From Nitrospirota bacterium (GTDB taxonomy: Bacteria; Nitrospirota; JACRHJ01): a stretch of DNA of 64,000 nt. The stretch covers positions 128,001 to 192,000 of the forward strand of contig CAVTDB010000026.1 of NCBI GenBank assembly GCA_963733375.1, given 5' to 3'. The translations under genes were made by a program, and so were the position numbers. The notes beneath the pieces were generated by a model that saw only the letters and a list, made by a program, of their open reading frames with translations, was not told where the DNA came from and made no database searches. Shown here one piece after another: positions 3,401 through 39,519 of this stretch. Each line of letters opens with the position of its first letter. The first letter of the stretch is position 1.

Positions 3401-5369
3401 GAATTGGTCGATATGCCCGCCGCGGCCGTCGTAATGGACGAATCCATGACGTTGACTAAAATGCTGTTGGTGCCGACCGATGAACTACCGATGTCCCAGT
3501 TCCAGTTGTTCGAATTGCCCCAGTCCTGGACTAAAGCGTAAGCTCCCGCCGTGTCCGGACCCTTCCGGAGGAACTGGTATTTATAATTGCCGCTGCCGCC
3601 GGCGGCGGCGGCGGTCCATGTTACAGCCTGTCCCGGAACTGCGGCCGGCAGGCTTGGAGCAAGGTCATTTACAGTTACCGGTACGTTAGCTGTTACATTT
3701 ATGCCTGTCCCGGGCATTTCAACGTTTCCTGCCTTATCTGTAGCCCTTGTCATGATGGTGTAGGACCCATCCTGGGGCGGAGTCCAGCTGTAGCTCCATT
3801 GTGAGGCGCCCTTTGCCGTGTTCCAGGTCGTACCGCCGTCTGTGGATACTTCCACCTGGTCACGCCGCCAACCTTTCCGTCGGCCGCAACGCCATTCACT
3901 GCGACTGTGGAACCCGTAAGCCTCGCGCCGTTTTTCGGATGCGTTATTTTCGAGCCCGGCGGGGCAAGCCTGACGACATTCACGTATGAGCAACTGATTA
4001 TGGTCTCATGCGCGCCGCTCGAATCCGTCGCGCGGCTCATTATCAGATATGCGCCATTTGTCGCCGGTGTCCATTTATAGTTCCATGTTGTCGTGCCGCT
4101 GGCCGTATCCCCAGGTCGTCCCGCCGTCTGTCGATACTTCCACGAAAGAGACGCCGTCCGCGGCCGAAGCCGTGCCGGTGACGGTGAGACCGGAGCTGCC
4201 GGCAAATGCCTTGCCAGCGGTTACAGGCGAAGTTATTGTCGAGACCGGTAAGGCGTATGACGGCCCCTCGATCATCCTGATGCGGTTGTTCTTGCTGTCG
4301 GCTACGAATATATTGCCCTTTGAATCCGTAGTGAGGCCAAACGGGTAGCGAAGTCCGGCATTGCCCGCGGCAGCGCCGTCGCCGGAAAATCCGGCAACCC
4401 CGGTCCCGGCCATAGTGTTTATCGTGCCGGAGGTATTGACTACCCTGACGCTCTGGTTGTACCAATCAGAAATATATACATTTCCGGCGGCGTCAACCGA
4501 GACGCCGGAAGGATGGTTAAGCGAGGCGGATATGGCATGTACCTCCGTCACCGGATAAGCCAGGCAGTGCCGTCGCCCGCCAGCGTCGTTATCCCGCCGT
4601 CCGAGCTGACAACCCTGACGCGCTGGTTATAACAGTCGGCGATGTAAAGTTTGCCCGCCGCGTCCAGGGCAATGCCCACAGGCCTGTTAAGCTTCGCCGA
4701 AATGGCGGGGCCGCCGTCTCCGGAAAAACCCGCCGCGCCCGTCCCGGCGACGGTCTTTATTATGCCCGTCGCATCTATCATCCGGATGCGGTTGTTGCCG
4801 GTATCCGATACGTATATATTCCCCTTGGAGTCCACCGCTACGCCTTCGGCTTGCTTTATGGCCGCCGAGACAGCCGGCCCGCCGTCGCCTGAGAAACGGG
4901 CGGCGCCGGTCCCTGCAACGGTAGTTATAATGCCGGATGCGCTTATCTTCCTGATGCGGTTGTTGCTCATGTCCGCGAAAAACACGTTCCCGGCGCTATC
5001 GACGGCAATGCCCGAAGGGTTCTTCAGCTTTGCGAGTATGGCGGAGCCGCCGTCGCCTGAATAACCCGCGGCGCCAACGCCCGCGATGGTCGATATCTTG
5101 CCGGTGGCGTCAATTTTCCTGATGCGCTGGTTGGCCCTGTCCGAGACGTAGAGGTTGCCCGCGGCGTCAGACGCCACGCAGCTCGGGGCACTTAGCCGGG
5201 CCGCAGTAGCCTGGCCCCCGTCGCCTGAGAAACCTGCGTTGCCAAGACCTGCATAAGTGTGGATATCGCCGGAAGATGCGAATGCCTCTTGCGAGGCGAA
5301 TATGAGAAGCGGGAGTAGAAGGATGAATACATAGAAATTGAAAAGCTTGGAACTCTTTTGCAGACCCAT
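477..5369 (-). CDS. Large secreted protein, paralog 1: signal peptide, NHL beta-propeller, 2 bacterial Ig domains, 7 Ig-like repeats, right-handed beta-helix, C-terminal DIGAY; multiple frameshifts
   Basis: ORF fragments 4548-5447, 4075-4551, 2605-3993, 1893-2897, 1702-1980 and 1485-1880 join into one colinear architecture; GFSGDGG NHL repeats; VEVSTDGGTTW Ig motif; ends SYDIGAY* at 477. Confidence 0.75.
1545..3690 (-). repeat. Seven ~300-bp tandem intragenic repeats (Ig-like, VTWTASATGGSGTYQYQFxRxGPDT)
   Basis: GAACTGGTACTGGTA or a close variant recurs at ~300-bp spacing (about 1718, 2016, 2316, 2622, 2930, 3241, 3571). Confidence 0.8.
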
Positions 5370-5531
5370 TTTTTTTCCTCCGTGTTGCTTGAGGGCAAAG
5401 CACTTTAAGAACTGTTCCAACATACTCTGATGCGGTTTTTTTATCAAATTAATTGTTTTTAATTAATCCATATTAATCAAACAGTTAGCGGTAATGGTCT
5501 TAGGCGGCGCGTGGAGCATATACGTAAGCAT

Positions 5532-5562
5532 AAAAAAGCCCGCAACTTCACGTTGCGGGCTT
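5532..5562. terminator. Hairpin AAGCCCGCAAC-TTCAC-GTTGCGGGCTT with A-run
   Basis: Perfect 11-bp inverted repeat between the two paralogs. Confidence 0.6.
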
Positions 5563-5587
5563 AGAGATTTTGGAAGTTTATTCAACT

Positions 5588-5636: not shown

Positions 5637-8424
5637 CTAATAAGCGCCTATGTCCCAGGATGTACGGGTAGCGCCGGTTATATTGGTATTGAACAGCGTC
5701 TGCGGCGTCCCCGCGCCAATCGCAGGGCTACCGGCATTCAGCCGGTAATTCGATCGAGCTTACAAAGGAGGGGTTCGCGCCAATTGAATGCGCGTCGTTA
5801 GCGGTGTTGGCCTTGATACTGCGCAAGGGAATAGTTCGAACCTTTCCACTGGACATCGGTCGCGTTACCGTACCAGAGATTATAGTCGCCGGCGATCTGG
5901 CGTGTAATCAAACGACCCGACCCGCATGCCCCACTGACGCAGTTGCTGATGATATTGTTTTTCATCGTGAGGTTGACTACTCCCACAGGATTGTTCTGCC
6001 CGGCTTGGCTGAAATCAAGGCCGTATTGCGTTGCTGTCTATGGTATTGTTGTAAATCCCGTATGTTTTGCCCGTCATCGCCTAACAAAATCCCGAAATTG
6101 CAATTTGTTATAATGTTGTTGTAAATCAACAACCCATTTACGTTGGGGCCATGCCAGCCCTGGATGCCACAGCTCGCAATGTGCTGAATCAGGTTGTTTC
6201 GGATTGTTATGTTTGCAGTAGATGCCATGATATAGATACCCTGGTCCTGGCTTGTATTAGTACCTATGTGCTCGAGAACGCAGTTTTGAATCGTGATGTT
6301 CGTTGCATTGGTGTAAAAAATCAATGCCGTCAACACTGTAGTTCTGTATGGTGATTCCATCAAGGATTATGTACCCTGAATTTTCAAAAACGCACAAAGA
6401 CACCCGGCAGACACACCTGTCCCGTCAAAAATCGGCGTCTCTCCAGGATAGGCCTTGATGGTTATCGGGGCGGATGCGTGCCAGATGCGAGAGCATAGAC
6501 CATTGCAAGACCCTTGTCCCGTGTAAGTTCCGCCACGGACATAAAGGGTGTCGCCTGCTTTCAGGGCCGCCGCTCCGTGGGCTAGCGTCTTCCACGGCGA
6601 GCTTATCGTCCCGCTGTTGCTGTCCGAACCGGTCGGAGCTATGTAATAGGAGTTGCCCGTCGAGGTGGGGCTAGGGGTCGGGGTCGGGGTCGGAGTCGGA
6701 GTCGGGGTCGGAGAGGTGCCGCCAGTTGCCGACAGGCTGACGGTGACATTTATGCCTGTGCCGGGCGTTTCAACGTTTCCTGCCTTATCCGTAGCCCTTG
6801 TCATGATGGTGTAGGACCCATCCTGGGGCGGAGTCCAGCTGTAGCTCCATTGTGAGGCGCCCTTCGCCGTATTCCAGGTCGTCCCGCCGTCTGTGGATAC
6901 TTCCACCTTGGCCAAGCCGCAACCCTTTCCGTGGGCCGCAACGCCATTCACTGCGACTTTGGAAGCCGTAAGCCTCGCGCCGTTTTTCGGATGCGTTATT
7001 TTCGAGCCCGGCGGGGCAAGCCTGACGAGTACGTTCACGTATGAGCAACTGATTATGGTCTCATGCGCGCCGCTCGAATCCGTCGCACGGCTCATTATCA
7101 GATATGCGCCATCTGTCGTCGGGCTCCATTTATAGCTCCATGTTGCCGTGCCGCTGGCCGTACCCCAGGTAGCCCCGCCGTCTGTCGATACTTCCACGAA
7201 AGAGACGCCGCCCGCGGCCGAAGCCGTGCCGGTGACGGCGAGACCTGAGCTGCCGGCAAATATCTTGCCAGCGGTTACAGGCGAAGTTATTGTCGAGACC
7301 GGTAAGGCGTATGACGGCCCCTCGATCATCCTGATGCGGTTGTTCTTGCTGTCGGCTACGAATATATTGCCCTTTGAATCCGTAGTGAGGCCAAACGGGT
7401 AGCGAAGTCCGGCATTGCCCGCGGCAGCGCCGTCGCCGGAAAATCCGGCAACCCCGGTCCCGGCCAGAGTGTTTATCGTGCCGGAGGTATTGACTACCCT
7501 GACGCCCTGGTTGTGCCAGTCGGCTATATATACAGTTCCCGCGGCGGTAACCGACACGCCTGAAGGAAATCTAAGCGAGGCGGACATGGCATGTCCTCCG
7601 TCACCGGATAAGCCAGGCGTGCCGTCGCCCGCCAGCGTCGTTATCCCGCCGTCCGAGCTGACAACCCTGACGCGCTGGTTATAACAGTCGGCGATGTAAA
7701 GTTTGCCCGCCGCGTCCAGGGCAATGCCCACAGGCTTGTTAAGCTTCGCCGAAATGGCGGGGCCGCCGTCTCCGGAAAAACCCGCCGCGCCCGTCCCGGC
7801 GACGGTCTTTATTATGCCCGTCGCATCTATCATCCTGATGCGGTTGTTGCCGGTATCCGATACGTATATATCCCCTTTGGAGTCCACCGCTACGCCTTCG
7901 GCATGGTTTATGGCCGCCGAGACAGCCGGCCCGCCGTCGCCTGAGAAACGGGCGGCGCCGGTCCCTGCAACGGTAGTTATAATGCCGGATGCGCTTATCT
8001 TCCTGATGCGGTTGTTGCTCATGTCCGCGAAAAACACGTTCCCGGCGCTATCGACGGCAATGCCCGAAGGGTTTTTCAGCTTTGCGAGTATGGCGGAGCC
8101 GCCGTCGCCTGAATAACCCGCGGCGCCAACGCCCGCGATGGTCGATATCTTGCCGGTGGCGTCTATTTTCCTGATGCGCTGGTTGGCCCTGTCCGAGATG
8201 TAGAGGTTGCCCGCGGCATCAGACGCCACGCAGCTCGGGGCACTTAGCCGGGCCGCAGTAGCCTGGCCCCCGTCGCCTGAGAAACCTGCGTTGCCAAGAC
8301 CTGCATAAGTGTGGATATCGCCGGAGGATGCGAATGCCTCTTGCGAGGCGAATATGAGAAGCGGGAGTAGAAGGATGAATACATAGAAATTAAAAAGCTT
8401 GTAATTTTTTTTCAGACCCATCAT
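5637..8424 (-). CDS. Secreted protein, paralog 2: NHL propeller, 2 Ig domains, Pro-Thr linker, right-handed beta-helix, DIGAY end; frameshifted in 3' part
   Basis: ORF 6367-8496 plus fragments 5977-6363 and 5798-5986; YYIAPTGSDSNSGTISSPWKT beta-helix N-cap; ends WDIGAY* at 5637; likely start ATG 8424 after GGAGG. Confidence 0.8.
6673..6712 (-). repeat. Hexamer repeat encoding a (Pro-Thr)n linker
   Basis: (GGGGTC/GGAGTC)n on + strand; TPTPTPTP in translation. Confidence 0.8.
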
Positions 8425-8662
8425 TTTTGATTCCTCCGTGCTGTTTGGGGGTAATTCCCTTTCAGAACTGCCCCAAGATACGCTGGAGCGGGCCATGAAT
8501 CAAATTAAAAGTCTTTAATTAATCTTTATTAATCAAAGGTTAGCAGTAATGGTCTGTTAAAGAAATGGTTTTGGGTGGTAAGGAAAGCATGAAAAAGCTT
8601 TAAAAGCGGGCGCCTCGAACGATAAGTACATAGTTGTTTTTGTGTAGCGGCAATCACTGCCG

Positions 8663-8872
8663 TCATTGCATTTTTTCCTGCGTCATATCCTCCTTTCTTT
8701 CATCCTGCTTTAAGTGATATCCAAGATAGAAAGGACATATTCTGCATAAAACAGTAGTGCAGTACTCTCTTAGCTGGAAGTTACTGGGGCAGTACGATTC
8801 ATTCACTGTGCAACAGTGGTATGCAACCCTTTTTGACAGATGCGGACATCTTGTTTTAGGCATATTTAGCAC
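8663..8872 (-). CDS. Small Cys-rich hypothetical protein (putative metal-binding)
   Basis: CPHL...CC...YCPSNFQLREYC...CRICPF; GAGGGG RBS upstream. Confidence 0.55.
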   Translation of the reverse strand: MLNMPKTRCPHLSKRVAYHCCTVNESYCPSNFQLREYCTTVLCRICPFYLGYHLKQDERKEDMTQEKMQ

Positions 8873-9196
8873 CCCTCGCTGTTTAACCTTTTTTAAATAT
8901 GAGGGCTGATAGACTACTCTCTAGACGGTACGTGACGCGCTGAAGTTACAAAAAAAGCGAAACTATGGGAAACGTATTCAGTTTCAGGGAAGTCTTCAGG
9001 CAAAACGGCGGAAAATGCAGGTGCGGCTGAAACTCCCAGTAACAATTTCAAATTAGGTAAGTGATGGATTTATCCCATCAAGGAGTAGATACCCGTATGT
9101 TATGCTTAATTGAGGCAAAAGGGTATTTGCAATAATAAGGTTGACGCGGTAATCTTTAAATAATGCTGTCGGTTAATCTAATAAAGGGAGGCTGTT

Positions 9197-9487
9197 ATGG
9201 CGGGGTTGGGTGATATATTCAAGGGCAATATCGTTACTGCCGTAGTGATTGGGGTGGGTGCAATAATACTTGCGCCGGTGGCGGCCCGCGCGGCCAAACC
9301 GCTCGCCAAGGCCGCGTTAAAGGGCGGGCTGATTGCCTTTGAGAAGGGCAAGGAGGCGTTTCACGAGGTGAGCGAGGTGGTCGAGGACCTGGTGGCAGAG
9401 GTCAAGGCGGAGATGGAGAAGGAGGAGGCGAAGGAAACCCTTGAATCCATTGTCGCTGAAGGGGGAGAGATTACAAGTGCCTCCTAA
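9197..9487 (+). CDS. DUF5132-like small protein (Gly-rich hydrophobic segment plus amphipathic acidic helix; FezA-like)
   Basis: AVVIGVGAIILAPV...KPLAKAALKGGL...EVVEDLVAEVKAE; GGAGG RBS. Confidence 0.75.
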   Translation: MAGLGDIFKGNIVTAVVIGVGAIILAPVAARAAKPLAKAALKGGLIAFEKGKEAFHEVSEVVEDLVAEVKAEMEKEEAKETLESIVAEGGEITSAS

Positions 9488-10004
9488 AGCCGGGCCGGAA
9501 GCGCCGTCGGCCTATATAAGCCATGCGACAAAAGGAAGGGTGCGGTTCAAGATACCTTCCAAGAAGGGCAACGCCCGTTTCTTTGCAAATATCAAGGACG
9601 TTCTTGAAAAAAATACCAGGGTCGCGGGTGTTGAAGTCAATCCCGTGACCGGCAGCGCCCTTGTCACCCACAATGCCGACATGGATTCCATAATCAAGCT
9701 CGCGGAGTCGAACAAGTTCTTCAAGCTCGAAAAGCGCGGACGGCGGCATGTATCCAACAACGTGGTAGAGAGCTTCAAGAGCCTGGACAATACGTTGAAA
9801 TCCGCGACGGACGGAGAGCTTGACCTGCCCACCGCGTCATTCCTGACGCTGGCGGGAGTCGGGATATATGAAATTGCGAAAGGCAATTTCGCCGCGCCCG
9901 CATGGTATACCGCATTCTGGTATGCGCTCAACATATTCCTGAAGGCAAGGCCTGACGCCAATGAAATCGAAAGAGAGCTTGTTCCACTTGGCGTTATCGA
10001 ATAA
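9477..10004 (+). CDS. HMA2-domain protein with C-terminal membrane segment (FezC-like)
   Basis: SHATKGRVRFK R-rich motif; GVEVNPVTGSALV; C-terminal PAWYTAFWYA. Confidence 0.75.
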   Translation: MPPKAGPEAPSAYISHATKGRVRFKIPSKKGNARFFANIKDVLEKNTRVAGVEVNPVTGSALVTHNADMDSIIKLAESNKFFKLEKRGRRHVSNNVVESFKSLDNTLKSATDGELDLPTASFLTLAGVGIYEIAKGNFAAPAWYTAFWYALNIFLKARPDANEIERELVPLGVIE

Positions 10005-10016
10005 TGCAAGGGCAAT

Positions 10017-13000
10017 GTGGTACAGCCTATACATACTGCGGTCAGAGGGAGAGCACGGTATAAGGTAAAAGGACTTTACCACTCCGAATCCCTCAAAACA
10101 GATATCGAAAAGGGCCTCTTTAATGAGGCTCGTGTAATTTCTTTTTCCGTCAACATCCTGACCGGAAACGTCCTTGTATTTTTTCCTCCCGAAGAATCCA
10201 GCTCCGTAATAGCCTCACTGCTCAAATCCATTGTAGACAGCTACATAAAAAAACTTCAGGAATCCGGCCCGCCAGCCAGGACGGTAACCTCACCCGCAAA
10301 GGCAAAAGCTGAGCTTCGGGAAAAGTTCAAGAGAATCAGGCCGTCATGAAGAACAGGACGCGGCGCACTGGCATCTTATCAGTTCCGAAGACGCCCTCAA
10401 TCTCACACGCTCTCAGGCAGGCTACGGCCTCACGTCCGAGGCCGCGGCGGATAAGCTCAGGAAATTCGGACCGAACCTCCTGCCGGAGGCTGTAAAGCGC
10501 TCCGGCCTTGAGATATTCGCGGAACAGTTCAAATCGATTCCGGTTGCGCTTCTGGGTGTAGCCGCGGGCCTTTCAATCTTTACGGGAGGCATATCCGACG
10601 CGGTCCTTATCGCGGGCGTGGTCCTCATCAACGCCGCAATCGGTTATGTCACTGAAACCCAGGCCGAAAAAACCATCAGTTCGTTGAAAACCCTGGTCAG
10701 GCCTTACGCGACTGTCTTAAGAGACGGCTTGCCGACAGAACTGGATGCCAAAGACGTGGTGCCGGGCGACGTCATTATCCTGAAACCCGGCAGTTACGTG
10801 GCTGCGGACTCAAGGCTTATAGAGGCCGATTTTCTCACCGTCGACGAGTCGGCCCTCACCGGCGAGAGCATGCCGGTGACAAAGAATACCGAGACGCTGG
10901 TAAAGCTGGACGTGCCCCTTGCGGACAGATTGAATATGGCTTATATGGGGACTCTTGTAATCGGGGGACAGGGCTATGCCGTGGTCGTCGCCACAGGCGA
11001 GTTCACCGAAATAGGCAGGATTCAGACGATGATGGGGGAAGCCCAGTCGCCGGAGACTCCCATGGAGAGACAGCTCCGGGTAATGGGCGGACAGTTAGTC
11101 GTCATAAGCGGGGGCGTGTGCGCCGTCGTGTTCATAATCGGCCTGTTACGGGGATATGGGTTCCTGCAGATGCTGCAGTCGTCGATATCCCTTGCCGTGG
11201 CCGCGGTCCCCGAGGGCCTGCCCACGATCGCGACTACGACCCTTGCGCTCGGGATAAGGAAGATGCGAAGGCATAACGTGCTTATCCGGCATCTGGAAGC
11301 GGTGGAAACCCTGGGTTCAGTCCAGACCATCTCGTTCGACAAGACCGGCACGATCACGATGAACAGGATGACCGTGGTGGAGGTTTACGCAGGCGGCATA
11401 AGGTTAAAGATATCAGACGGCAAATTCATCTCGGATGCGGACAGAGTGAATCCCTATGCGATGAAAGAGCTGCTGATGCTGCTGCACGTATCGGTCATAT
11501 GCAATGAGACCAAAATAGACTTCAAAGACGGCGAATACGAGCTTCGAGGCTCGCCCACGGAAATCGCGCTGATTAACCTGGCTATAAACGCTGGCATAGA
11601 CGTAGTGGAACTAAGGGCAAGGCACCCCATCCGAAAGATAAGCCATCGCTCGGAGAGCCGCAACTACATGAGCACCATGCACGGGGCGAAGGGCGGCGGC
11701 AAAATTTTCGCGGTAAAGGGAAGCCCGTCGGAAGTCCTTGCGATGTGCAAGTGGCATATGAAGGGCGGGCAGACGCTTCAACTTACCGAGGATGACAGGC
11801 AGGAGATATTCACGGAAAACGAGAGGATGGCCGGCGCTTCCATGAGGATGCTGGGTGCGGCTTTCAATTATTCCGGTGAAAACGGCAATGGGCTGATATG
11901 GCTGGGCCTTATCGGCATGGCGGACCCCGTTAGGAAGGGACTCAAGAACCTTATGGCCGGTTTTCACCAGGCCGGCATCGATACGATAATGATAACGGGC
12001 GACCAGAGCCCTACCGCGTTTGCAATCGGCAAGGAGCTGAACCTGAGCCAGGACAAGCAACTCGAAATACTGGATTCGACGCATCTTGCCGATATGGACA
12101 AGGAAGTCCTGCGGGCGCTCGCCGCGAGGGTGCATGTTTACGCCAGGGTAAGTCCGGCGCATAAGCTCCAGATAGTCAGGGCATTGCAGGAATCCGGGAA
12201 GGTGGTCGCCATGACGGGCGACGGAATAAACGACGGCCCGGCGCTGAAGGCGGCGGACATCGGGATTGCGCTTGGGCATACCGGGACGGACGTAGCCAGG
12301 GAAGTGGCGGATATCGTCCTGGAAGACGATAACCTGGAGACGATGATAGTGGCGGTCAGCCATGGAAGGACAATATATAACAACATCCGCAAATCGGTCC
12401 ACTACCTGCTTGCCACCAACTTAAGCGAAATCAACGTAATGTTTCTTGCTATCGCGGGCGGCCTGGGCCAGCCCCTGAGCGCGATACAGCTCCTTTGGAT
12501 AAACCTCCTTTCGGATATCTTCCCCGGGCTTGCGCTGGCGCTCGAACTGCCCGAGCCGGACGTTCTGTCCCGGCCGCCCAGGGACCCGCACGAGCCGATA
12601 ATAAAGCGCTCTGACTTTAAAAGGATCGCTTTTGAGTCGGCGCTTTTGTCCGGCGGGGCGCTTGGGGCTTATGGATACGGAATAGCGAGGTATGGGATGG
12701 GGGCAAAGGCAAACACGATGGCGTTTACGACCCTGACGACCGCCCAGCTGGTGCACGCAATAAGCTGCCGCTCAGAGACGGAAAGCATCTTCGGCAAGGA
12801 AAAGATGCCGCCGAACCCTTATCTCAACACGGCGCTCGGGGTTTCTCTCGCCTTGCAGGTTCTGACCCTGGCGATACCGGGTTTAAGGAGGCTCCTTGGA
12901 ATTACGACGATCGGGTTTGCCGACGCGGCCGTTATCGGCGCCGGCTCCATACTGCCATTTCTGATAAACGAGGCGACGAAGAGTAAACCTTCGGAAAAAG

Positions 13001-13122
13001 CTGATCGCGAAAAAAGCGCCTCCGCGCTTGAAAGCACCGTACCTTCAACCGAACGGGAGACGAACGGATATGAGAAAGAATTTCATGTTTACCTCGGAGT
13101 CGGTAACGGAAGGACACCCTGA
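10017..13122 (+). CDS. P2A (Ca2+-type) P-type ATPase with N-terminal HMA2 domain; frameshift near 10340
   Basis: HMA2 fragment 10017-10349 (HTAVRGRARYK, NILTGNVLV); GLTSE...FGPN cation-ATPase N domain; TGES, AVPEGLP, DKTGT, TGD, GDGIND, LLWINLLSD. Confidence 0.9.
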
Positions 13123-14260
13123 CAAACTTTGCGACCTTATAGCCGACGGTATCGTGGACCACTTCCTCCAGCAGGACCCGCTCTCCAAGGTGGTCGCCGA
13201 GTGCGCGGTTTCCACGTCCATCGTATTCATCGCGGCGAGGTTCGCTTCCACGGCCATTGTGGATTTTCCGGCGGTTGCGAGACAGATAATAGACCAGGTA
13301 GGCTATGATCAGCCGGCCTTTAACGCGAAGACGTGCAGCATACTTACAAGCCTGAGGGAGCTTCCGGAGAAAGAGCGCCCGGCCGTGGACGAGAAGGACA
13401 TGTCGGATGAGGAGATCGAGGCGATGCCGGCAAGAAACCAGGTCACGGTCTTCGGTTATGCCTGCGATCAGACATCGGTATTGATGCCGCTCCCGATATG
13501 GCTCGCGCACAAGCTGGCCAGGCGGCTTACGATGGTGAGGCTGACGAAGACGCTTCCCTACCTCTGCCCGGACGGAAAGACCCAGGTGGGGGTGGAGTAC
13601 AGGGATTTTAAGCCGCACCGGATACACAGCATAACGATAGTCGCGAGCCAGGACAAAACCGGCGTGCCCGTCCTTAAAAACCTGCACGAAGAAATAAAGG
13701 GGGCGGTGATCGACGAGGTCTTCAAGGACGAGAGAATAAAACCGGACGACAAGACACATATATTCGTGAACCCGAGGGGGCAGTTGATAGTGGGCGGCCC
13801 CTCCGTGCATTCCGGCCTTACGGGCAGGAAAAACGCCATCGACACTTACGGCGAATATTCGAGGCAAAGCGGCGCGGCGCTCTCCGGCAAGGACCCGTCG
13901 AGGATTGACAGAGTCGGGGCCTATGCCGCGCGGCATGCGGCAAAGACAGTGGTCGCGGCGGGGCTTGCAACGGAGTGCGAGGTCCAGTTGAGCTATTCAA
14001 TCAACCTCTCAAGGCCGGTGAGCGTGCAGGTGGAGACGTTCGGCACCGGCAAAATTGGCGATGAGGAGATAGCCTCGATGCTGGAGAAAAATTTCGATTT
14101 CAGGCTAGCCGGAATAATAAAAAAGTTCAACCTGAGGCACCTGCCGTCTTTAATCAAGGGAGGCTTTTACAGGAAGCTTGCCGCATACGGCCATATGGGC
14201 AGGATGGACATGGGACTGCCCTGGGAAGTAACGGAAAAGATATCCGCGTTCAGGAGGTAG
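13070..14260 (+). CDS. metK: Methionine adenosyltransferase homolog (divergent active site)
   Basis: FTSESVTEGHPDK, PDGKTQV, GLTGRK, SGKDPSRIDR, AAYGH; the GAGDQG signature is altered to PARNQV. Confidence 0.85.
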   Translation: MRKNFMFTSESVTEGHPDKLCDLIADGIVDHFLQQDPLSKVVAECAVSTSIVFIAARFASTAIVDFPAVARQIIDQVGYDQPAFNAKTCSILTSLRELPEKERPAVDEKDMSDEEIEAMPARNQVTVFGYACDQTSVLMPLPIWLAHKLARRLTMVRLTKTLPYLCPDGKTQVGVEYRDFKPHRIHSITIVASQDKTGVPVLKNLHEEIKGAVIDEVFKDERIKPDDKTHIFVNPRGQLIVGGPSVHSGLTGRKNAIDTYGEYSRQSGAALSGKDPSRIDRVGAYAARHAAKTVVAAGLATECEVQLSYSINLSRPVSVQVETFGTGKIGDEEIASMLEKNFDFRLAGIIKKFNLRHLPSLIKGGFYRKLAAYGHMGRMDMGLPWEVTEKISAFRR

Positions 14261-14261
14261 C

Positions 14262-14495
14262 ATGCTGAATTATCTTTATGACGACGAGGCGGAACGGCAG
14301 ATACACCTGCACGCTATGCAAATACTCTGCAAGGAGATAATACTCCCGGAGGAGGAAATAAGGGAATTGTACGAGCGGGAACTGGAAAGACTGAAGGGAA
14401 CCGCGAGGGTCAAGGATTTTCTGGTCGTGCTCGTCTGCAGGGCCGTGAGAGACACCCTGCGCAGGCACCGGGAAAATGAGGAGTTGGCCTCATGA
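14262..14495 (+). CDS. Small helical protein (DUF3562-like)
   Basis: YERELERLKGTARVKDFLVVLV pattern; starts 2 nt after the metK-like stop. Confidence 0.6.
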   Translation: MLNYLYDDEAERQIHLHAMQILCKEIILPEEEIRELYERELERLKGTARVKDFLVVLVCRAVRDTLRRHRENEELAS

Positions 14496-14498
14496 CCC

Positions 14499-15359
14499 TC
14501 ACCCGGCCCCGTCTTTTTCTCCGTCTTTCGGTGTCACGTTTTTCATTAAAAAATCCACGATAACAGCCGCCGTCAGGGCCAGTATCAAGAGCCCCGCCGC
14601 AGTCATGATGCTGTTCAGCAGGTCGGGGCCGAACACCAGGACCAAACCAAGGCCGAACATCATGAAGCCGGAAACCAGGTTCAAAAACTTTCCCTGGCGG
14701 GCCTGCGTCTTTTTTGTCCCCAGGCTTACCGCGAAGATAAGGACAATGGCCGCGAGCGGTATGACATAGACGATGCAGTAAAGAAGAAGATAGGAGTAAT
14801 AATCGACCGTGGAGAGCTTGAACAGGGTCAGGCCCCTTGTGAATATCAGCGGGAACCCCAGCGAGCTGACCATCTCATAGACGTTTACGGCTATGGCAAG
14901 AAGGCTTGCGCCCGCTATCATCGGGACCGTGCGTTTTGAGTGCAGGAGCCCTTTAATCCTGGATATTACGGTATTGCCGGGTTTGTCGGAGTTTAAAAAA
15001 TTTTCTCCGTCACCATCCGTGAAATAGCTCCTTACATTCAGGCCGCCCACTATAACCGCGGCTATGCCTGCCGACATCGTTATTATCCTTAAGTGGCCGA
15101 CAAAAAGGAATACGTTCAGCCATGCGGCTATGAAGATGAAGTAGATTAAACCCGAGAATAAAACGAAGGTCCCGCCGATAAGGAGCATCCTGCTTCTCGA
15201 CCGCTCACTTATCAGCAGGCCCAGGAGAAACGAGAGGACGAAAAAAGCGACTGGGTTAACGCTGTCCAGCGCTGCGAGTATTACCGTAAACAAAGCTGGG
15301 GAGATTGATGAAGGATCAACCTTCCCCAGCAAAGGCAGGATTAATAAGGCATTGGACAT
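14499..15359 (-). CDS. Multi-pass membrane protein, CcdA/DsbD-TM-like
   Basis: C-terminal part of ORF 14499-15911 from MSNALL; LDSVNP..F.VL pattern and about 8 hydrophobic helices. Confidence 0.6.
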   Translation of the reverse strand: MSNALLILPLLGKVDPSSISPALFTVILAALDSVNPVAFFVLSFLLGLLISERSRSRMLLIGGTFVLFSGLIYFIFIAAWLNVFLFVGHLRIITMSAGIAAVIVGGLNVRSYFTDGDGENFLNSDKPGNTVISRIKGLLHSKRTVPMIAGASLLAIAVNVYEMVSSLGFPLIFTRGLTLFKLSTVDYYSYLLLYCIVYVIPLAAIVLIFAVSLGTKKTQARQGKFLNLVSGFMMFGLGLVLVFGPDLLNSIMTAAGLLILALTAAVIVDFLMKNVTPKDGEKDGAG

Positions 15360-16038
15360 TACCTGCTTTTCTTCCTCGCTTTTGCATGCTCTTCCGCGCC
15401 TCGGCCTCAGCCGGTTCCGCTTCTTCCGCCGCCGTCTTCCAACAGCCCTCTTCGGAAGCGCCGCGCTGGCTACATCTTTCAAGCCGCCCACCACGCCGAT
15501 AAGGACATCTTTCACGGTGGCCACGGCGGCATTTCCGATGGAGCCCGCCGCCTCAACGGCGCCGCCTACCGCGGAAACCGCGACTTCTTCGAGATTGCCG
15601 CCCACTTCCTTCGCGGCCTCGATTATCCCGTCTACCGCGCCCTTTGCCACAATAGCGACATCCGCGCCGACTTCGGCGGCGCCCTTAACGGCGCCTCTTG
15701 CGGTCTGGCTTGCGGCCGTGACAACGTCTCCGCTGATATCGCTTATCCCCATCACGGCGCCTTTAGCGACGCTTCTCGTGCTGTTGATAAGGTTCGCGCC
15801 CACTTCCTCGGAGGCCTGTATAGCCCCTTTCAGGACATCCGCCGTCACGTTCACGGCCTGGTCCGTCACCGTGCCCGTGGCCTTGATGGTATTTGAAACC
15901 GTATCGCGCACAAGACGTCACTATCTCGGCCTCTATCTCATTCAGCCCCTGCAGGCTTGAAGTTATCTCACCTTTTACGGTAGTACCTGCTTTTCCTATC
16001 GACATGCCGGGATGTTCCAACGCTTCTTCCTTAGCCAT
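15359..16038 (-). CDS. Ala/Gly/Val-rich amphipathic helical repeat protein; frameshift near 15915
   Basis: MAKEEALEH start (16038, GGAGG RBS) joins RDTVSNT...; ~22-aa repeats AxxGAVxGAAEVGxD; exact 3' end uncertain. Confidence 0.6.
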
Positions 16039-16153
16039 AAAGCCCTCCGTAGTTAAATGTACCATTTAAGTATAGCATTCCCGGAAAACTCATAACCCAT
16101 TGTCCCGCAGTGATTTTCATTACTTACCTATCATCAGGTAAGTATCGGTCAAT

Positions 16154-16444
16154 TCATACGACCTGCCTGAGCCTTTCGGCGTATGTGCCGCTTTTTACCA
16201 GGATTTCTCTCTTTATCTCGGCTAAAGTAACTATGACCTCGTCTATTTCCTCCGGCGCCAGGATGACCGTATCGTTTGTCTCCGTCGGACATTCGCCCGT
16301 ATTGCAGAGGTAGAGGTGTTTTTCACCCCGTACGCCAAAAAGAAGCGTCGTTCCCGATTTCAGCGGGATCATTTTTTTACCGTCTTTTAAGGCCACTATC
16401 ATTTTATCATCTCCTTTTCCGCTATAGACAGAAGCCAGACTCAA
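16154..16444 (-). CDS. Hypothetical protein
   Basis: ORF with AGGAG RBS before MIVALKDG (probable start 16402). Confidence 0.4.
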   Translation of the reverse strand: MSLASVYSGKGDDKMIVALKDGKKMIPLKSGTTLLFGVRGEKHLYLCNTGECPTETNDTVILAPEEIDEVIVTLAEIKREILVKSGTYAERLRQVV

Positions 16445-16609
16445 CCATACGGAGGTGATGTTACCACTTTATTGTTACAACCTTATTGTGTCTAAAAGAA
16501 TTTATTGTTAAGCAGAGGAACTGAACTGGTATGAAACTGGAAAAATACTACACTCTCCGCTTGAGCGGCAATGGCAGGACCGGCAGCGGTTATTTAAACT
16601 TGTTTTCTC

Positions 16610-16981
16610 TTACAGCAGTACGCTTAAAAGTGAAAGCGCGGAGCCCTCGAAGACCAGATCGACCGCGACGCCGAAGACAGCCTTGCTAACGGCGCGGCCG
16701 GCCTTATGGGCCGCCTGGTGCACGTACTGGTCGTTGGTTACAGCCTTTGAATAATCGAAATAACCTTTTTTTGCCATTTCGGAAACTATGGCTTTGTGCG
16801 TCACGGAGATGGGGTCGTAATTGATGACGATGCTGCCGGTAACGGTGTTGGTAGCGACGGCGGTAACTCCGTCAATGGAGCTTATCTCACCTTCGATCCT
16901 TGCAGCCATCAACTCCTTGCCCTTGATGACCGGGGTCTTGACTCTGAGCCTGCCAGGTACATTGTGCATGTAATAGCTCAA
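16610..16981 (-). CDS. HMA2-domain protein with hydrophobic C-terminus
   Basis: YYMHNVPGRLRVK, ATNTVTGSIVINYD; GGAGG RBS. Confidence 0.75.
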   Translation of the reverse strand: MSYYMHNVPGRLRVKTPVIKGKELMAARIEGEISSIDGVTAVATNTVTGSIVINYDPISVTHKAIVSEMAKKGYFDYSKAVTNDQYVHQAAHKAGRAVSKAVFGVAVDLVFEGSALSLLSVLL

Positions 16982-17286
16982 ATCTCACCTCCCTTGATTT
17001 TTATATACGTCCTGCAAACCGGATATCCGGAGCATCGGAACCTCCAGAAAACGTCCTCCCTCCGGTATATGTGCATATGTTTGCCGCAGACGGGACATAA
17101 AGGTTTGTGGTTTATAACAGGTCTTTTGCTCCCCAGGGTAAACTGTTTGTTGCATATCAGACACAGATACCGCTGTTTTTCCCGTGAAGTGTGCCCGTAC
17201 CTGTAAATTGCTTCGCTTCCGCATGAAGGGCATTCAATTTCCCCGGTCCATCCTTGGGCGGCTTTGTCATGCCTACAGTTATACAA
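16978..17286 (-). CDS. Double zinc-ribbon protein (IS1 InsA-like N-terminal ribbon plus topoisomerase-like ribbon)
   Basis: CPSCGS..IYRYG....KQRYLCLICNKQF and CPVCG...FRCSGYPVC; true start probably near 17251. Confidence 0.65.
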   Translation of the reverse strand: MYNCRHDKAAQGWTGEIECPSCGSEAIYRYGHTSREKQRYLCLICNKQFTLGSKRPVINHKPLCPVCGKHMHIYRREDVFWRFRCSGYPVCRTYIKIKGGEI

Positions 17287-17293
17287 TATTTAA

Positions 17294-17332
17294 ATTACAG
17301 GGTAATTAACGAATTGTTAAGATTTGGTTACA
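17294..17332 (-). promoter_or_regulatory. Four 11-bp-spaced direct repeats (PhoB/OmpR-type operator)
   Basis: ATTACA 17294, ATTAAC 17305, GTTAAG 17316, GTTACA 17327; minus-strand TATAAC -10 at 17278-17283. Confidence 0.6.
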
Positions 17333-17401
17333 GTCGAAATCAGAGGGGAATTTATATGGTTTGCCGAAATCAGGGGGGCCTTTATAAAGACCCCCATTGT
17401 G

Positions 17402-17803
17402 TCAACTTTTAGCTTTGGCCGCCTTGGTAGCCACTTTTTTTGCCGGTTTAGGCCGGGATACCGTCTCTTCCTTGCGCGGCGCCGCTTTCTTTATGGCCGC
17501 CTTCGCGGAAGACACATGCCGCGCCACCGTTCCTCCCACGCCTGCCCCGGCTGCCGCGGCTAAGAGAGGCTCGTCGGCTGCGGCGTGACGTTCGGATTTT
17601 ATTTCCGCCACCAGGTCGCCGACCACTTCGCCGACGTCATGGTACGCCTCCCTGCCTTTATCATACGCGACCAGCCCTCCTTTTATGGCCATCTTCACGA
17701 CCGGCTTCGCCACCCTGGCGATAATCGGCACGAATATGATGCCCCCGACGCCTATCGCCAGCGCCGTCACTATGTTCCCTTTGAACAGGTCATCAATTCC
17801 CAT
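17402..17803 (-). CDS. Second DUF5132-like protein with Lys/Ala-rich tail
   Basis: DDLFKGNIVTALAIGVGGIIFVP...KPVVKMAIKGGL; clear paralog of 9197-9487. Confidence 0.75.
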   Translation of the reverse strand: MGIDDLFKGNIVTALAIGVGGIIFVPIIARVAKPVVKMAIKGGLVAYDKGREAYHDVGEVVGDLVAEIKSERHAAADEPLLAAAAGAGVGGTVARHVSSAKAAIKKAAPRKEETVSRPKPAKKVATKAAKAKS

Positions 17804-17874
17804 GACCCCACCTCCGCTGAAATCCTGTTATTCAAATTTGCCTCTATTATTTAATTATAGCAAATTCGATGAAG

Positions 17875-18261
17875 TTATATACCCAGGAATTCAGCGACCT
17901 TGCTCCTTAATTCGTAAAGGTTGCCTTTGCATATATAACCCCGCAGCCCATGTTCCGCGGCCGATTTGCGCAGGCTGTCTTCGTCGTTCGACGAAAGAAA
18001 AGCTACCGGGATGTCTTTGCAGGACATGGTGTTTTTTATTACTTGCGCGAGCGATTCGCCCGAGAGTGCGGGCATGTTTATATCGATCAGGATAAGGTCC
18101 GGCCGCAGGTCCTTTATTACATTCGTGGAGCCTAAGGCCTGGCTGTGGGTATGCGCTTCGTAACCCTCGTTTTCCATGATCTCTTTTGTCGTCAGAAGAA
18201 GTCTCTCGTCGTCATCGATTATCAATATTTTTTTCTTTTTCTTTTCCATTTCCATTTCCAT
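17875..18261 (-). CDS. Single-domain response regulator (REC)
   Basis: ILIIDDD, PDLILIDINMP, YICK. Confidence 0.85.
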   Translation of the reverse strand: MEMEMEKKKKKILIIDDDERLLLTTKEIMENEGYEAHTHSQALGSTNVIKDLRPDLILIDINMPALSGESLAQVIKNTMSCKDIPVAFLSSNDEDSLRKSAAEHGLRGYICKGNLYELRSKVAEFLGI

Positions 18262-19450
18262 TTCCGTTTCCGTTCTCCATTAAGTCAAGTGGAAGGCTGA
18301 TTTCAAACTTCGTGCCTTCTCCGAAGGTACTGCTGATAGAGATATCGCCTCCAAGCAGGTCAACCAGGTGCTTCGTTATGGTGAGGCCAAGCCCCGTCCC
18401 TTCATGCCTCTTCGTATGCGCGTCCTCAAGCTGGGTGAATGCCGTGAAAAGTCTTTTTAGGTCTTCCTCTCTTATGCCTATGCCGGTATCCCGGACTGAA
18501 ACGAGGAACCTGCCTTCTTCCTTACGCGCCTCAAGGATGATCCTTCCTTCATCCGTGAACTTTGCCGCGTTGCTCATGAGGTTCGTCAGTATCTGGCGGA
18601 GCTTGACCCGGTCCGTATAAATACTGAACGGACTTCCTATTACGTGGACCTCCACGGAAACGGCTTTTTTCCCGAGAAGCACGCGGGTGGTATCCGCGAC
18701 TTCTTTCAATACCGGGGCCGGGTCGAATAATTCAGGGATGACTTCCATCCGGCCCGCCTCGACCTTCGACAGGTCGAGTATGTTGGTAATAATAGCGCGC
18801 AGGCCAAGGGCGCTTGACGAGAGCAGGTCCAGCCGGTCCGTCAGCTGGTCGATGTATCCCTTATCGCATGATATCTTCATCAACTCGGCCAGGCCTATGA
18901 TGGCGTTGACCGGAGCCCTCAGTTCATGAGTCACGTTGGCGATGAACTGGGATTTGATGTTGTTGACCTTCTCCAGTTCCTTCGCCTTGGCGTTGGCCAG
19001 TTCCTTCTGCATGATGCTGTTGGCCAGGGCGTTGCTCTGCTCTATGACTATCCTTTTTATGGAGAGAAGCCCGATGAACTTATCGTCGTCATCGACGACC
19101 ACTATATCGTCATAGACGTCCTGGAACGGCCTGCAAAGCGCCCTGTCGAGCGTTTCGTCTATGCCGCGCGACATATTGATCGACAGGGGCTCTTTATCGG
19201 CTATGGTAAAAATCGGCTTCCGCTCGTGAAGCTCGAAACCGAACCTTCTAAACAGCGTGAAAAGCAACTTGTTCCTCGTAACGAGGCCGACGGGTTTACC
19301 CATATCCACGATGGCGAGCGCGTCGAGATGCTTCTCCTGAAAGAACCTTTCAGCCACTTCTTTTACGCGCATATCGGGAAAGATATGCTCTGTTGAAGTG
19401 ATAAGCTCTCCGATAGGAGTTATAGTCTCTTCCATGATTTTCCTGTTCAT
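18212..19450 (-). CDS. CBS-domain sensor histidine kinase
   Basis: N-terminal CBS pair; H-box THELRAP, N-box NLMSNAAKFT, DTGIG, GTGLGL. Confidence 0.88.
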   Translation of the reverse strand: MNRKIMEETITPIGELITSTEHIFPDMRVKEVAERFFQEKHLDALAIVDMGKPVGLVTRNKLLFTLFRRFGFELHERKPIFTIADKEPLSINMSRGIDETLDRALCRPFQDVYDDIVVVDDDDKFIGLLSIKRIVIEQSNALANSIMQKELANAKAKELEKVNNIKSQFIANVTHELRAPVNAIIGLAELMKISCDKGYIDQLTDRLDLLSSSALGLRAIITNILDLSKVEAGRMEVIPELFDPAPVLKEVADTTRVLLGKKAVSVEVHVIGSPFSIYTDRVKLRQILTNLMSNAAKFTDEGRIILEARKEEGRFLVSVRDTGIGIREEDLKRLFTAFTQLEDAHTKRHEGTGLGLTITKHLVDLLGGDISISSTFGEGTKFEISLPLDLMENGNGNGNGNGKEKEKNIDNR

Positions 19451-19454
19451 ACGG

Positions 19455-20244
19455 CTAATATGCGAACCATTTATCGAGGCTGTACAGGCCGGACACAACG
19501 CTTTCGCGGCTCTTTGCGGAGAGGTAGTTTCTGCTGACGGACCCTTTTTTTGCACTGACATCAGATTTTATCGCCCGGCTGAAATAAAGGAATGACTTTA
19601 TCCTCCGGACGCCCAGCAGGCTCCAGAGGTGAGGGAGGAGGGTCATTTCTCCGTACCAGGGTATCTCCGCCTTCTTGTCGCCGGAATAATATTTGATGCT
19701 GACGGGGATGACAGCAATGCCGGAGCGCGCGGGCGCCTCAAACAACATCCTCTTGAAATCCCCCGTCCCGCTGCCGTCGGTCGTGGTGCCTTCAGGGAAC
19801 GTAACCACGTTTACCCCGTGCGACAGCGCCGTCTCCACGTCCGACAGCGATTTCCACGATGCGAGCGCCGAGCGCCGGTCTATGAATACCGTCCCGGCGA
19901 GCCGCGCCATCCAGCCTATCAGCGGCCAGGACCGCACCTCCATCTTCGATACGAAAACCGACGGGGAGAGGCTCGCCATCACTAAAATGTCGATATAGCT
20001 GACGTGATTGCAGACGGTAAAACCGGTATTTTGCACCCTGTGCCCGGTGGAGCCTACGTCTATTCCCAGTATCAGCGCAGACGGCCCTGGCCCAGACCAT
20101 GCATCCGAATGCTGAAAATTTTGCCTTAAGCCTTGCATCAAAAATGAGGATAAGACGCCCCGCCTGGACGGGCGGCAGCATCAAGGCTGTCCAAAGGACC
20201 AGGAGCAATAGTCTTATTAGCCTGAGCGGAAAACGGCTGTCCAT
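19455..20244 (-). CDS. Lyso-lipid O-acyltransferase (OlsA/PlsC-like); frameshift near 20080
   Basis: NHVSYID (HX4D), FIDR, FPEGT motifs; coupled to the upstream olsB-like gene. Confidence 0.8.
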
Positions 20245-21011
20245 CAGAAGTACCTGTTCCTGTAGCGGTTAATAAGGCGCTCGCGGTCGAGCAGGATTAA
20301 GAAGTCCGAAACGCCGAACGCGCCGTCGAATGCCGGCTCTCCGCAGATGCGCGCGCCAAGTTTGAGATAGGCGAGCAGCAGGGGCGGGACATGTTCAAGC
20401 ACCGTGCCCCTGTCAAAGTCGGCATGCGCGTCGAAACCCGGGACGTTTGCCAGAGGAAAGGTCCGGAATTCGGAGTCGGCCAGGTAAGACTTTTTGAAAT
20501 ATGCATATGCGTTGCTTATGACCTTCGGGTTTATGGTGTGGATGCTCCCGCATCCGAAGACGTACTTTATATCGTGCTCCAGTATATACTTCGCCACCCC
20601 GGACCACATGAGGTTAAGTACGGCCGAGCCCCGGTAATCCTTGTGCACGCATGCCCGGCCCAGTTCCAGTTTTTCTCCCTGATGCCTGAAAATATTCCGC
20701 AGGTCGAACTCGTTCTCCGAATAAAAACCGACCCCCGCGTCGGCCCTCTTTCCGGTCATCATCCGGTACGTGCCGACGACCATGTCACGGGATGAGTCCA
20801 CGACCATTATATGGTCGCAGTGCCTGTCGTAAACATCCCTGTCCAGGCCGGTCGCAAACGACGAGGCGAGCCCTTCGTTCAGTTCGAGGTTGAAGACTTC
20901 GAACCGGAGCCTCAGGACCGACTCCATCTCTTCCTCAGTGACCGCCTTCTTCAGTACCAGCGCGGACTGCGCTTTCTCCATTACCGTATTAAAACTCATC
21001 GATACCTCCAT
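20244..21011 (-). CDS. GNAT N-acyltransferase, ornithine-lipid OlsB-like
   Basis: LRFEVFNLE, DRDVYDRHCDH, VVGTYR, FYSENEF, ELGRACVHKDYR, PPLLLAYLKLGA. Confidence 0.8.
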   Translation of the reverse strand: MEVSMSFNTVMEKAQSALVLKKAVTEEEMESVLRLRFEVFNLELNEGLASSFATGLDRDVYDRHCDHIMVVDSSRDMVVGTYRMMTGKRADAGVGFYSENEFDLRNIFRHQGEKLELGRACVHKDYRGSAVLNLMWSGVAKYILEHDIKYVFGCGSIHTINPKVISNAYAYFKKSYLADSEFRTFPLANVPGFDAHADFDRGTVLEHVPPLLLAYLKLGARICGEPAFDGAFGVSDFLILLDRERLINRYRNRYF

Positions 21012-38390: not shown

Positions 38391-38392
38391 TT

Positions 38393-39478: not shown

Positions 39479-39482
39479 TTCA

Positions 39483-39511
39483 TGGACAACCCTGTCAACC
39501 GAAGTTATAAT
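39483..39511 (+). promoter_or_regulatory. Sigma70 promoter of dsrN (near-leaderless)
   Basis: TGGACA-17 nt-TATAAT, 8 nt before ATG 39520. Confidence 0.55.
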
Positions 39512-39519
39512 GGCACGTT

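Follow-up and report, generated by a model that had tools for sequence, protein, structure and literature searches.

The gene cluster at positions 9197-17803 of a 64,000-nucleotide stretch of a Nitrospirota bacterium genome (assembly GCA_963733375.1, contig CAVTDB010000026.1, positions 128,001 to 192,000 of the forward strand; hereafter the window, in which all positions are numbered unless a contig is named) is one copy of a widespread and conserved bacterial operon that is apparently undescribed. At its centre is a P-type ATPase of the P2A class (hereafter the pump) with a predicted calcium-type ion site and an N-terminal CoBaHMA domain, accompanied by DUF5132 proteins, further CoBaHMA proteins including one with a C-terminal helical hairpin (the hairpin protein), a helical-repeat protein and MetK2, a divergent paralogue of S-adenosylmethionine (SAM) synthetase. 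In Pfam the CoBaHMA domain goes by the name HMA_2 (Bruley et al., bioRxiv 10.1101/2024.07.07.602159; PMC8890360). No published description of the operon was found in the literature searched; the description of CoBaHMA by Gaschignard et al. (2024) may list CoBaHMA-ATPase architectures. An earlier note on this DNA had proposed a ferrosome-like cluster built on a calcium-type ATPase. Pfam scans and translations found every feature named in it in its place, and the listing of open reading frames (ORFs) together with family scans resolved the cluster into two convergent units, a plus-strand and a minus-strand set. The observation that these families are gathered here is confirmed, because all three HMA_2 matches and both DUF5132 matches of the genome sampled (2.39 Mb in 26 contigs, 81% complete) fall inside the cluster.

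To assess the extent of conservation, the pump was used as query in a scan that took a single genome from each species. This matched 194 stretches, of which 160 were confirmed and the best 80 kept, giving 79 loci: 21 from heterocystous or related cyanobacteria and 58 from Nitrospirota (Thermodesulfovibrionales), Desulfobacterota (Syntrophobacteraceae, Geobacteraceae, Desulfobulbaceae and Syntrophorhabdales), Brocadiales and Binatia. Six-frame ORFs of each locus were searched with the window proteins and with profiles built from their matches, and the denominators below count loci with enough flanking sequence. HMA_2 domain and pump formed a single ORF in 47/49 non-cyanobacterial loci, the exceptions being the frameshift-laden L002 and the partial L028, and in 19/19 cyanobacterial loci. 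MetK2 lay directly downstream of the pump in 48/49 and 11/21, respectively. Upstream of the pump, non-cyanobacterial loci carried genes for DUF5132 (37/41), the hairpin protein (38/41) and, directly adjacent, the repeat protein (34/41), with all three present in 32/41; in cyanobacteria each of these counts was 0/18. The usual order is a small divergent HMA_2 gene (not always present), then DUF5132, hairpin protein, repeat protein, HMA_2::pump, MetK2 and, in some loci, DUF3562. The Brocadia locus L032 is one that has the operon complete. The survey of DUF5132-HMA_2-P2A ATPase-metK neighbourhoods, which the earlier note had set as a test, thus found strong conservation over the 79 loci, and the objection that the neighbourhood might not be conserved fails on that account. 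The window forms its own clade of the pump tree with L001, L002 and L003, in which the repeat protein is absent upstream of the pump; in the window and L002 it is encoded on the opposite strand, fused to a membrane domain. All 21 cyanobacterial pumps formed one clade, sister to that of Brocadiales and nested among lineages of anaerobes, and this nesting suggests that cyanobacteria acquired the pump-MetK2 pair by transfer. The features of the cluster in the window are as follows.

9197..9487, plus strand: DUF5132 protein a, 96 amino acids; Pfam DUF5132 48.6 bits (cut-off 25)
9477..10004, plus strand: CoBaHMA (HMA_2) protein with C-terminal helical hairpin, 175 amino acids from GTG 9477, the ORF being open also from TTG 9441; Pfam HMA_2 65 bits
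10017..13122, plus strand: CoBaHMA::P2A P-type ATPase, a single gene in relatives and in two frames here; Pfam and relatives
13070..14260, plus strand: MetK2, divergent second S-adenosylmethionine-synthetase paralogue, probable start ATG 13070 in an ORF open from 13028; TIGR01034
14262..14495, plus strand: DUF3562 small protein; Pfam DUF3562 39.5 bits; found in 13/29 loci with full flanks
14499..16037, minus strand: helical-repeat protein (N-terminal leader and 157-residue repeat domain) fused to a basic linker and multi-pass membrane domain; start ATG 16037
16113..16130, minus strand: conserved 17-nucleotide upstream element, followed by -35-like and -10-like hexamers; 26.8 bits, top match genome-wide
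16154..16444, minus strand: 96-residue ORF, function unassigned; no match in Pfam or NCBIfam, homologue in L002 only
16610..16981, minus strand: small CoBaHMA protein with hydrophobic C-terminal tail (residues 101-123); Pfam HMA_2 49.4 bits, HMA 31 bits
16978..17286, minus strand: double zinc-ribbon protein (IS1/IS1595-type N-terminal ribbon and Top1-type ribbon); found in 19/29 loci with full flanks
17402..17803, minus strand: DUF5132 protein b, 133 amino acids; Pfam DUF5132 40.2 bits (cut-off 25)

The pump contains the Pfam domains E1-E2_ATPase, Cation_ATPase_N and Cation_ATPase_C, and its closest solved structures are human SPCA1 (E 3e-148), Listeria LMCA1 (1.7e-139) and SERCA (about 1e-112). 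The top NCBIfam models were the PMR1-type (633.1 bits) and SERCA-type (542.1 bits) ATPases. Its translation holds AVPEGLP, YLLATNLSE and LLWINLLSD and is devoid of the D[Y/F]SCA and HNxxT transmembrane motifs that define P1B-6 pumps. Among 70 full-length fused pumps, M4 read PEGLP in 69 and PEGLT in one; the commonest variants of M5 (TNxSE) and M6 (NLxS/TD) kept the N and E and the N and D, respectively, and M8 contained a conserved Q. The assignment to P2A rather than P1B made in the earlier note therefore holds, on the Cation_ATPase_N/C domains, the SPCA1, LMCA1 and SERCA matches and the PEGLP, TNLSE and NLLSD residues, as does its claim that the pump nevertheless retains the basic N-terminal domain, which belongs to the same Pfam family as that on a P1B-6-type pump (locus L080, see below). 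As the M4, M5 and M6 residues are kept in relatives and SPCA1, LMCA1 and SERCA are the best structural matches, a calcium-type ion site is well supported by sequence, and the transported ion is predicted to be Ca2+ or possibly Mn2+.

CoBaHMA domains are characterized by the absence of a cysteine pair, a histidine before strand 1 and conserved basic residues (PMC8890360). Translations and alignments showed that all three HMA_2 domains of the window contain no cysteine and have the conserved histidine and the basic residues of strand 1. The motif H-x-x-x-G-R-x-R-x-K, which the earlier note had assigned to all three, is exact in two of them, but the copy in the pump has an extra residue (H-x-x-x-x-G-R-x-R-x-K, with GRARYK as its G-R-x-R-x-K part). 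The HMA_2 match of the hairpin protein extended over positions 10-153 of the 154-position profile, and its N-terminal domain has a net charge of +10. The N-terminal piece of the pump (10017-10349) scored 24.2 bits by itself (cut-off 30); the family model matched all 70 fused pumps. DUF5132 proteins a and b are 62.5% identical over 72 amino acids. In protein a, a Gly-rich hydrophobic segment at the N-terminus (roughly residues 6-34) precedes a basic, amphipathic stretch of net charge +4; the C-terminal helix is acidic, and its net charge of -11 is complementary to that of the CoBaHMA N-domain (+10). Protein b has a basic C-terminal extension (net +11).

Kinship to ferrosome (fez) clusters was examined with L080, a fez-type cluster from a Syntrophobacter metagenome-assembled genome (MAG) that has the P2A operon too. 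The ferrosome pump FezB is a P1B-6 ATPase with D[Y/F]SCA and HNxxT motifs, and products of fez clusters form organelles (Grant et al., bioRxiv 10.1101/2020.01.10.902569), in which iron is reported to be stored as iron phosphate. The L080 pump carries DYSCG and HNATT, the P1B-6 signature. Pfam identified HMA_2 in five L080 proteins: the P1B-6-type pump, a second P1B pump, a FezC-like protein of 280 amino acids, a soluble protein and a hairpin protein of 183 amino acids, the last with 151 bits across the whole model. The hairpin protein of the window is 28% identical to the latter over 141 amino acids (E 8e-14), the two being homologous from end to end. Given this homology and the presence of HMA_2 on the fez-type proteins, the 'R-rich' toolkit of fez clusters is truly shared with the P2A operon. 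The FezA-like protein of L080 (81 amino acids) gave no DUF5132 match at E up to 1, and none of its 120 listed relatives carried a Pfam domain. Of the homology to Fez families that the earlier note had set as a test, that of the hairpin protein is supported; for DUF5132, kinship to FezA was not detectable beyond 16 aligned columns.

The conserved repeat protein corresponds to residues 1-157 only of a 470-residue ORF (14499-15911, minus strand) and consists of a Gly/Ala/Val-rich repeat; fusion to a C-terminal membrane domain was seen in the window and L002 only. Over 33 sequences from four phyla the repeat protein showed a mean column identity of 78%, while most pumps had best-segment identities of 57-68%. 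AlphaFold2 modelled it as six helices of about 19 residues joined by 3-residue turns, a period of 22 residues (pLDDT, the per-residue confidence score, 75; pTM, the predicted template-modelling score, 0.68). Foldseek with this model returned no solved structure at E up to 1e-3; VIA-align and Foldseek ranked de novo designed helical-repeat proteins first (VIA-align Z 13.5), which may reflect a common arrangement only. A profile search of 5.8 billion proteins identified 78 relatives, none with a functional name. Five relatives (P0127, P0137, P0186, P0197 and P0198) had a precomputed match to PF05443 (ROS/MucR). Within the phylum, the family was present in 32 of 201 sampled genomes and 16 of 81 genera. 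A relation to calcyanin was considered and rejected: single-sequence searches gave weak matches (E 0.016 and 0.04) within ORFs of about 1850 amino acids in two of five cyanobacterial genomes, and the repeat-protein profile matched none of three genomes of the Fischerella/Chlorogloeopsis group. The membrane domain of the 470-residue ORF had no Pfam match; its Atlas features lay near SfLAP/DsbD_TM-like clusters (0.87-0.93), which we treat as a lead only. A second copy of the repeat-protein gene was found on contig C3 (86001-97000, locus L091), followed by genes for a ParA/MinD-type ATPase, a DUF4177 protein and another P2-type pump. A ParA-like gene adjoins the cluster in 4 of the 79 loci.

MetK2 matched TIGR01034 with 375.7-375.9 bits (cut-off 309.4), and a housekeeping metK elsewhere on the same contig scored 615.6 bits; both kinds were present in four of five other carriers examined. 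Comparison with solved MetK structures and with the housekeeping enzyme shows that GHPDK, the lysines of DGK/GRK/SGKD and the aspartate of DR are retained in the cluster copies. Where the housekeeping enzyme has the canonical motifs GAGDQG and GGPxGD, the cluster copies read x-R/K-N-Q-V and GGPS-V/I-H, respectively (PARNQV and GGPSVH in the window). Histidine stands in place of aspartate in 62 of 67 cluster-linked copies, the remaining five falling outside the search pattern. On its sequence, MetK2 is a conserved subfamily in which two acidic residues of the substrate pocket are changed, and its substrate or role may be changed as well. The supply of PPi or Pi by this enzyme, which the earlier note had suggested, is speculative.

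When all ORFs of the loci were clustered and recurrent families annotated, phosphate-uptake genes stood out among the neighbours. Genes pstS, pstC, pstA, pstB and phoU were found within the fetched flanks of 17/58 non-cyanobacterial and 0/21 cyanobacterial loci, mostly upstream and divergent, upstream and co-directional in L033 and L053, and downstream in L019 and L038. Loci of this kind were scattered over several clades of the pump tree. The common form, found in about 16 loci (5637-5903, minus strand, in L004 and equivalents), has a small HMA_2 gene at the head of pstSCAB-phoU and divergent from DUF5132; the two units therefore share a single intergenic region, which holds a conserved element. 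The guess of the earlier note that phosphate might be involved gains support from this adjacency in its several arrangements. No iron genes were present among the conserved neighbour families annotated.

In 26 of 37 loci the element, 17 nucleotides long, is found 77-157 nucleotides before the start of DUF5132, and -35-like and -10-like hexamers follow it. A weight matrix found 40 sites of at least 19 bits in 1.15 Mb of loci, 31 of them directly upstream of DUF5132 on the same strand and some of the others upstream of extra repeat-protein copies. In the 2.39 Mb of the window genome, the best site (16113-16130) stands upstream of the repeat-protein gene and the next best scored 19.7 bits; the fourth (19.6 bits) lies about 80 nucleotides upstream of the second repeat-protein ORF on contig C3. 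No match of at least 12 bits at the genome's own pst operon was among the sites listed; a shared Pho-type signal was thus not found in this genome. Since the top site is at the cluster, the fourth at the second repeat copy and none of those listed at the pst operon, the element marks the cluster here and not a general phosphate regulon.

Beside the cluster, a gene for a PlsC-like acyltransferase (19455-20141, minus strand) adjoins one for a PF13444 protein (OlsB-like N-acyltransferase; 20244-21011, minus strand), and the two possibly serve aminolipid synthesis. A PlsC-like gene was found near the cluster in 11 other loci. The acyltransferase genes stand behind those of a CBS-domain histidine kinase (18212-19561) and a response regulator (17875-18261). 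In the minus-strand unit, the double zinc-ribbon protein is a possible regulator and a candidate to bind the upstream element, and its gene is paired with the small HMA_2 gene in many loci. A search of the region 8300-18400 for RNA families and riboswitches returned one sub-threshold snoRNA match and nothing else, and sigma-70 promoter and terminator scans scored no better than shuffled sequences. Elsewhere in the window, the gene for an NHL-repeat/Ig-domain protein (6367-8496, minus strand) has paralogous copies close by, and BLAST searches with 5001-5576 and 6674-8598 matched several places in L001 and L002. An AT skew of 0.46, far above that of the remainder of the window, was noted at 38001-40000.

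Related gene sets were found in cyanobacteria. In all five genomes of heterocystous cyanobacteria examined (L083-L087; G001, G005 and G011-G013), DUF5132 and HMA_2-hairpin genes flank an HMA_2::P1B pump and two multi-HMA_2 proteins accompany it. This pump is of the P1B class (TIGR01525, 513 bits), is 28% identical to the FezB-like pump of L080, and has LDFATG and NNGST in place of the P1B-6 motifs D[Y/F]SCA and HNxxT; no description of this cluster was found in the literature searched. In one genome a DUF5132 gene also precedes a plain PMR1-type pump (L089). In Microcystis aeruginosa PCC 7806, the neighbourhood of ccyA, which encodes calcyanin and is a marker gene of calcium carbonate formation, is reported to contain two DUF5132 genes, two CoBaHMA genes, one with a helical hairpin, and a gene for a Ca2+/H+ exchanger, these neighbours being co-expressed with ccyA (Bruley et al., bioRxiv 10.1101/2024.07.07.602159). 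With the Microcystis set added to the others, the pair of DUF5132 and CoBaHMA-hairpin protein looks, on gene content, like a portable unit that partners cation transporters. Fischerella muscicola PCC 7414, listed among intracellular-carbonate formers (PMC8890360), carries the pump-MetK2 pair (L056); we draw no conclusion from this single strain.

We tentatively read the operon as a system that sequesters a cation together with phosphate, either in an internal membrane or on it, the repeat protein serving as scaffold; we regard this reading as quite possible though somewhat short of probable. The pump would take a divalent cation, predicted to be Ca2+ or possibly Mn2+, from the cytosol into a membrane-bounded or membrane-attached, phosphate-rich deposit that the accessory proteins would help to build. 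The basic CoBaHMA domains of the pump and of the hairpin-anchored and tail-anchored proteins might dock on an anionic partner, either membrane lipid or the acidic helix of DUF5132, while the shaping or marking of the membrane would fall to DUF5132 and the hairpin protein. The 22-residue helical-repeat protein could form a scaffold or coat, phosphate imported by Pst could supply the counter-ion, and MetK2 may have a changed substrate or a role in handling triphosphate. In a fuller version of this idea, anaerobes of four or more phyla would build a new storage organelle, a body of calcium (or manganese) phosphate, with membranes shaped by CoBaHMA and DUF5132 proteins, a self-assembling repeat coat, phosphate fed by Pst and a MetK that handles tri- or pyrophosphate instead of making SAM; a ParA-type ATPase would position the body in some genomes. 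In this full form we consider it rather doubtful.

Several observations weigh against sequestration. Inclusion, compartment, localisation and transported ion are all predictions made from genes alone. Bacterial P2A pumps studied so far are plasma-membrane exporters. The pump falls below both NCBIfam equivalog cut-offs (633.1 against 798.3 bits for PMR1-type and 542.1 against 703.4 bits for SERCA-type), and its M8 Q sits at the position that we take, in alignment and in numbering, to be that of SERCA E908. The hhalign comparison of the FezA-like family with DUF5132 covered 16 columns only, in the Gly-rich hydrophobic segment (probability 78%). In cyanobacteria only pump and MetK2 stay together. 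Adjacency to pst is mainly confined to Nitrospirota, which contributed nearly all such loci, and the window has no pst genes, the genome's own pst-phoU lying on contig C21 without the upstream element of the cluster. A search for PPK1 in this genome, which is 81% complete, found none. Finally, both pump and repeat protein are frameshifted in the window.

The main rival, on balance an unlikely one, is that the pump, governed by regulatory subunits, exports cations across the plasma membrane and that no organelle is formed. Anionic lipids would then be sensed by CoBaHMA, with DUF5132 and the hairpin protein as small regulatory subunits comparable to the phospholamban-type peptides of SERCA, and export of Ca2+ or Mn2+ would be tuned when the membrane is remodelled under phosphate stress. 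Besides the exporting habit of the studied bacterial P2A pumps, this would agree with the adjacency of pst-phoU and with the OlsB-like (PF13444) and PlsC-like genes beside the cluster, the latter recurring as described near 11 other loci. A regulatory role through anionic lipids has been proposed for CoBaHMA (Gaschignard 2024, as given in citing text). Efflux leaves unexplained, however, a helical-repeat protein that is 78% identical across phyla, a dedicated and altered MetK, and the occurrence of an HMA_2-hairpin component in fez-type clusters that form organelles.

Another explanation, which we judge improbable, is decay, in which pump and repeat protein are true pseudogenes and the system is inactive in this strain. 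The frame of the HMA_2 N-domain runs to 10349; that of the pump opens at 10288, and its first start codon is GTG 10618. Alignment with L001, whose pump is 95% identical as protein, and with L003 indicated that 2 nucleotides are missing after about 10336 in the window. Two peat metagenome runs yielded contigs, about 94% alike, in which the missing TG is present; the closest contigs (run X1, about 98% alike) do not span 10322-10359. In the repeat-protein gene, one extra base near 15917 relative to L002 cuts off the leader, which begins at ATG 16037 behind a good ribosome-binding site, from the remainder of the protein; relatives read NEIEAEIVSLVRDTV within a single frame. That the 2-nucleotide gap at about 10337 and the 1-nucleotide insertion hit the two central genes speaks for decay, as do a gene order rearranged relative to most relatives and the absence of the upstream element from the plus-strand operon. 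Against this, the remainder of both genes is intact and conserved, relatives in the two peat runs have an intact pump frame, and at the site of the gap in the pump gene the window differs by one base from L002, its closest relative by DNA, which has an in-frame 3-nucleotide gap there. Other genes of the assembly are split as well: on contig C3 the ParA/MinD-type ATPase is divided into two ORFs and the second P2-type ATPase is split too, and the H+-PPase (C6:48814-50848) and PstA (C21:6037-6862) each consist of two overlapping ORFs. The assembly looks indel-prone, and since these genes are split alike, both frameshifts are probably consensus errors rather than decay.

A true ferrosome, that is, an iron-storing fez cluster, is very improbable indeed, since the HMA_2/R-rich domains, hairpin protein and small Gly-rich hydrophobic proteins held in common are combined here with a P2A pump that has calcium-type residues in place of D[Y/F]SCA and HNxxT, and the conserved neighbour families annotated include no iron gene.

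Among bacterial mineral stores, gene sets of the CoBaHMA type have so far been discussed only for ferrosomes and intracellular calcium carbonate. The same accessory proteins travel with P1B-6 pumps, with a second P1B type in cyanobacteria and with the P2A pump, and in Microcystis with a Ca2+/H+ exchanger, and this recurrence points to a general, portable module for cation handling at membranes. If a body is formed, as sequestration would have it, it would be a new prokaryotic organelle, and the operon would offer a genetic handle on the storage of calcium and phosphate by anaerobes of peat, soil and groundwater. The fixed pairing of the pump with an altered MetK poses a separate enzymological puzzle. 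These ideas are directly testable; the pump-MetK2 pair occurs in cultured cyanobacteria, Fischerella muscicola PCC 7414 being one.

Compared with known systems, the pump shares its domain set and the M4, M5 and M6 ion-site residues with LMCA1, SPCA1 and SERCA. It differs from them in its N-terminal CoBaHMA domain and fixed set of partner genes, in scoring below the equivalog cut-offs, and in the Q at the position presumed to be SERCA E908. With the ferrosome cluster the operon has in common a P-type ATPase with an Arg-rich N-terminal domain (HMA_2 by Pfam in L080), additional HMA_2 membrane proteins (two in the window, of which the hairpin protein is homologous over its whole length to an L080 protein) and small proteins with a Gly-rich hydrophobic N-terminal segment. 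Its pump is P2A and not P1B-6, its DUF5132 proteins are not demonstrably of the family of the FezA-like protein, it has the helical-repeat protein and MetK2 in addition, and its neighbours are phosphate-uptake rather than iron genes. Acidocalcisomes or volutin granules are calcium- and phosphate-rich electron-dense bodies loaded by ion pumps (Seufferheld et al., PMC3198990), and the body proposed here would likewise be rich in calcium and phosphate and loaded by a pump. The H+-PPase gene of the genome, on contig C6, is unlinked to the cluster, however, and PPK1 was not found in the part of the genome that has been assembled. The cyanobacterial HMA_2::P1B cluster resembles it in placing a DUF5132 and hairpin pair beside a CoBaHMA-fused P-type pump and is unlike it in having a P1B pump and multi-HMA_2 proteins and neither repeat protein nor MetK2. 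The closest published parallel, which the earlier note had missed, is the ccyA neighbourhood of Microcystis. Its transporter is a Ca2+/H+ exchanger and not a P-type ATPase, and no MetK2 is reported there; the two sets are alike in their paired DUF5132 genes, in a CoBaHMA-hairpin protein with a further CoBaHMA protein and in a calcium transporter, and Microcystis is reported to form intracellular calcium carbonate.

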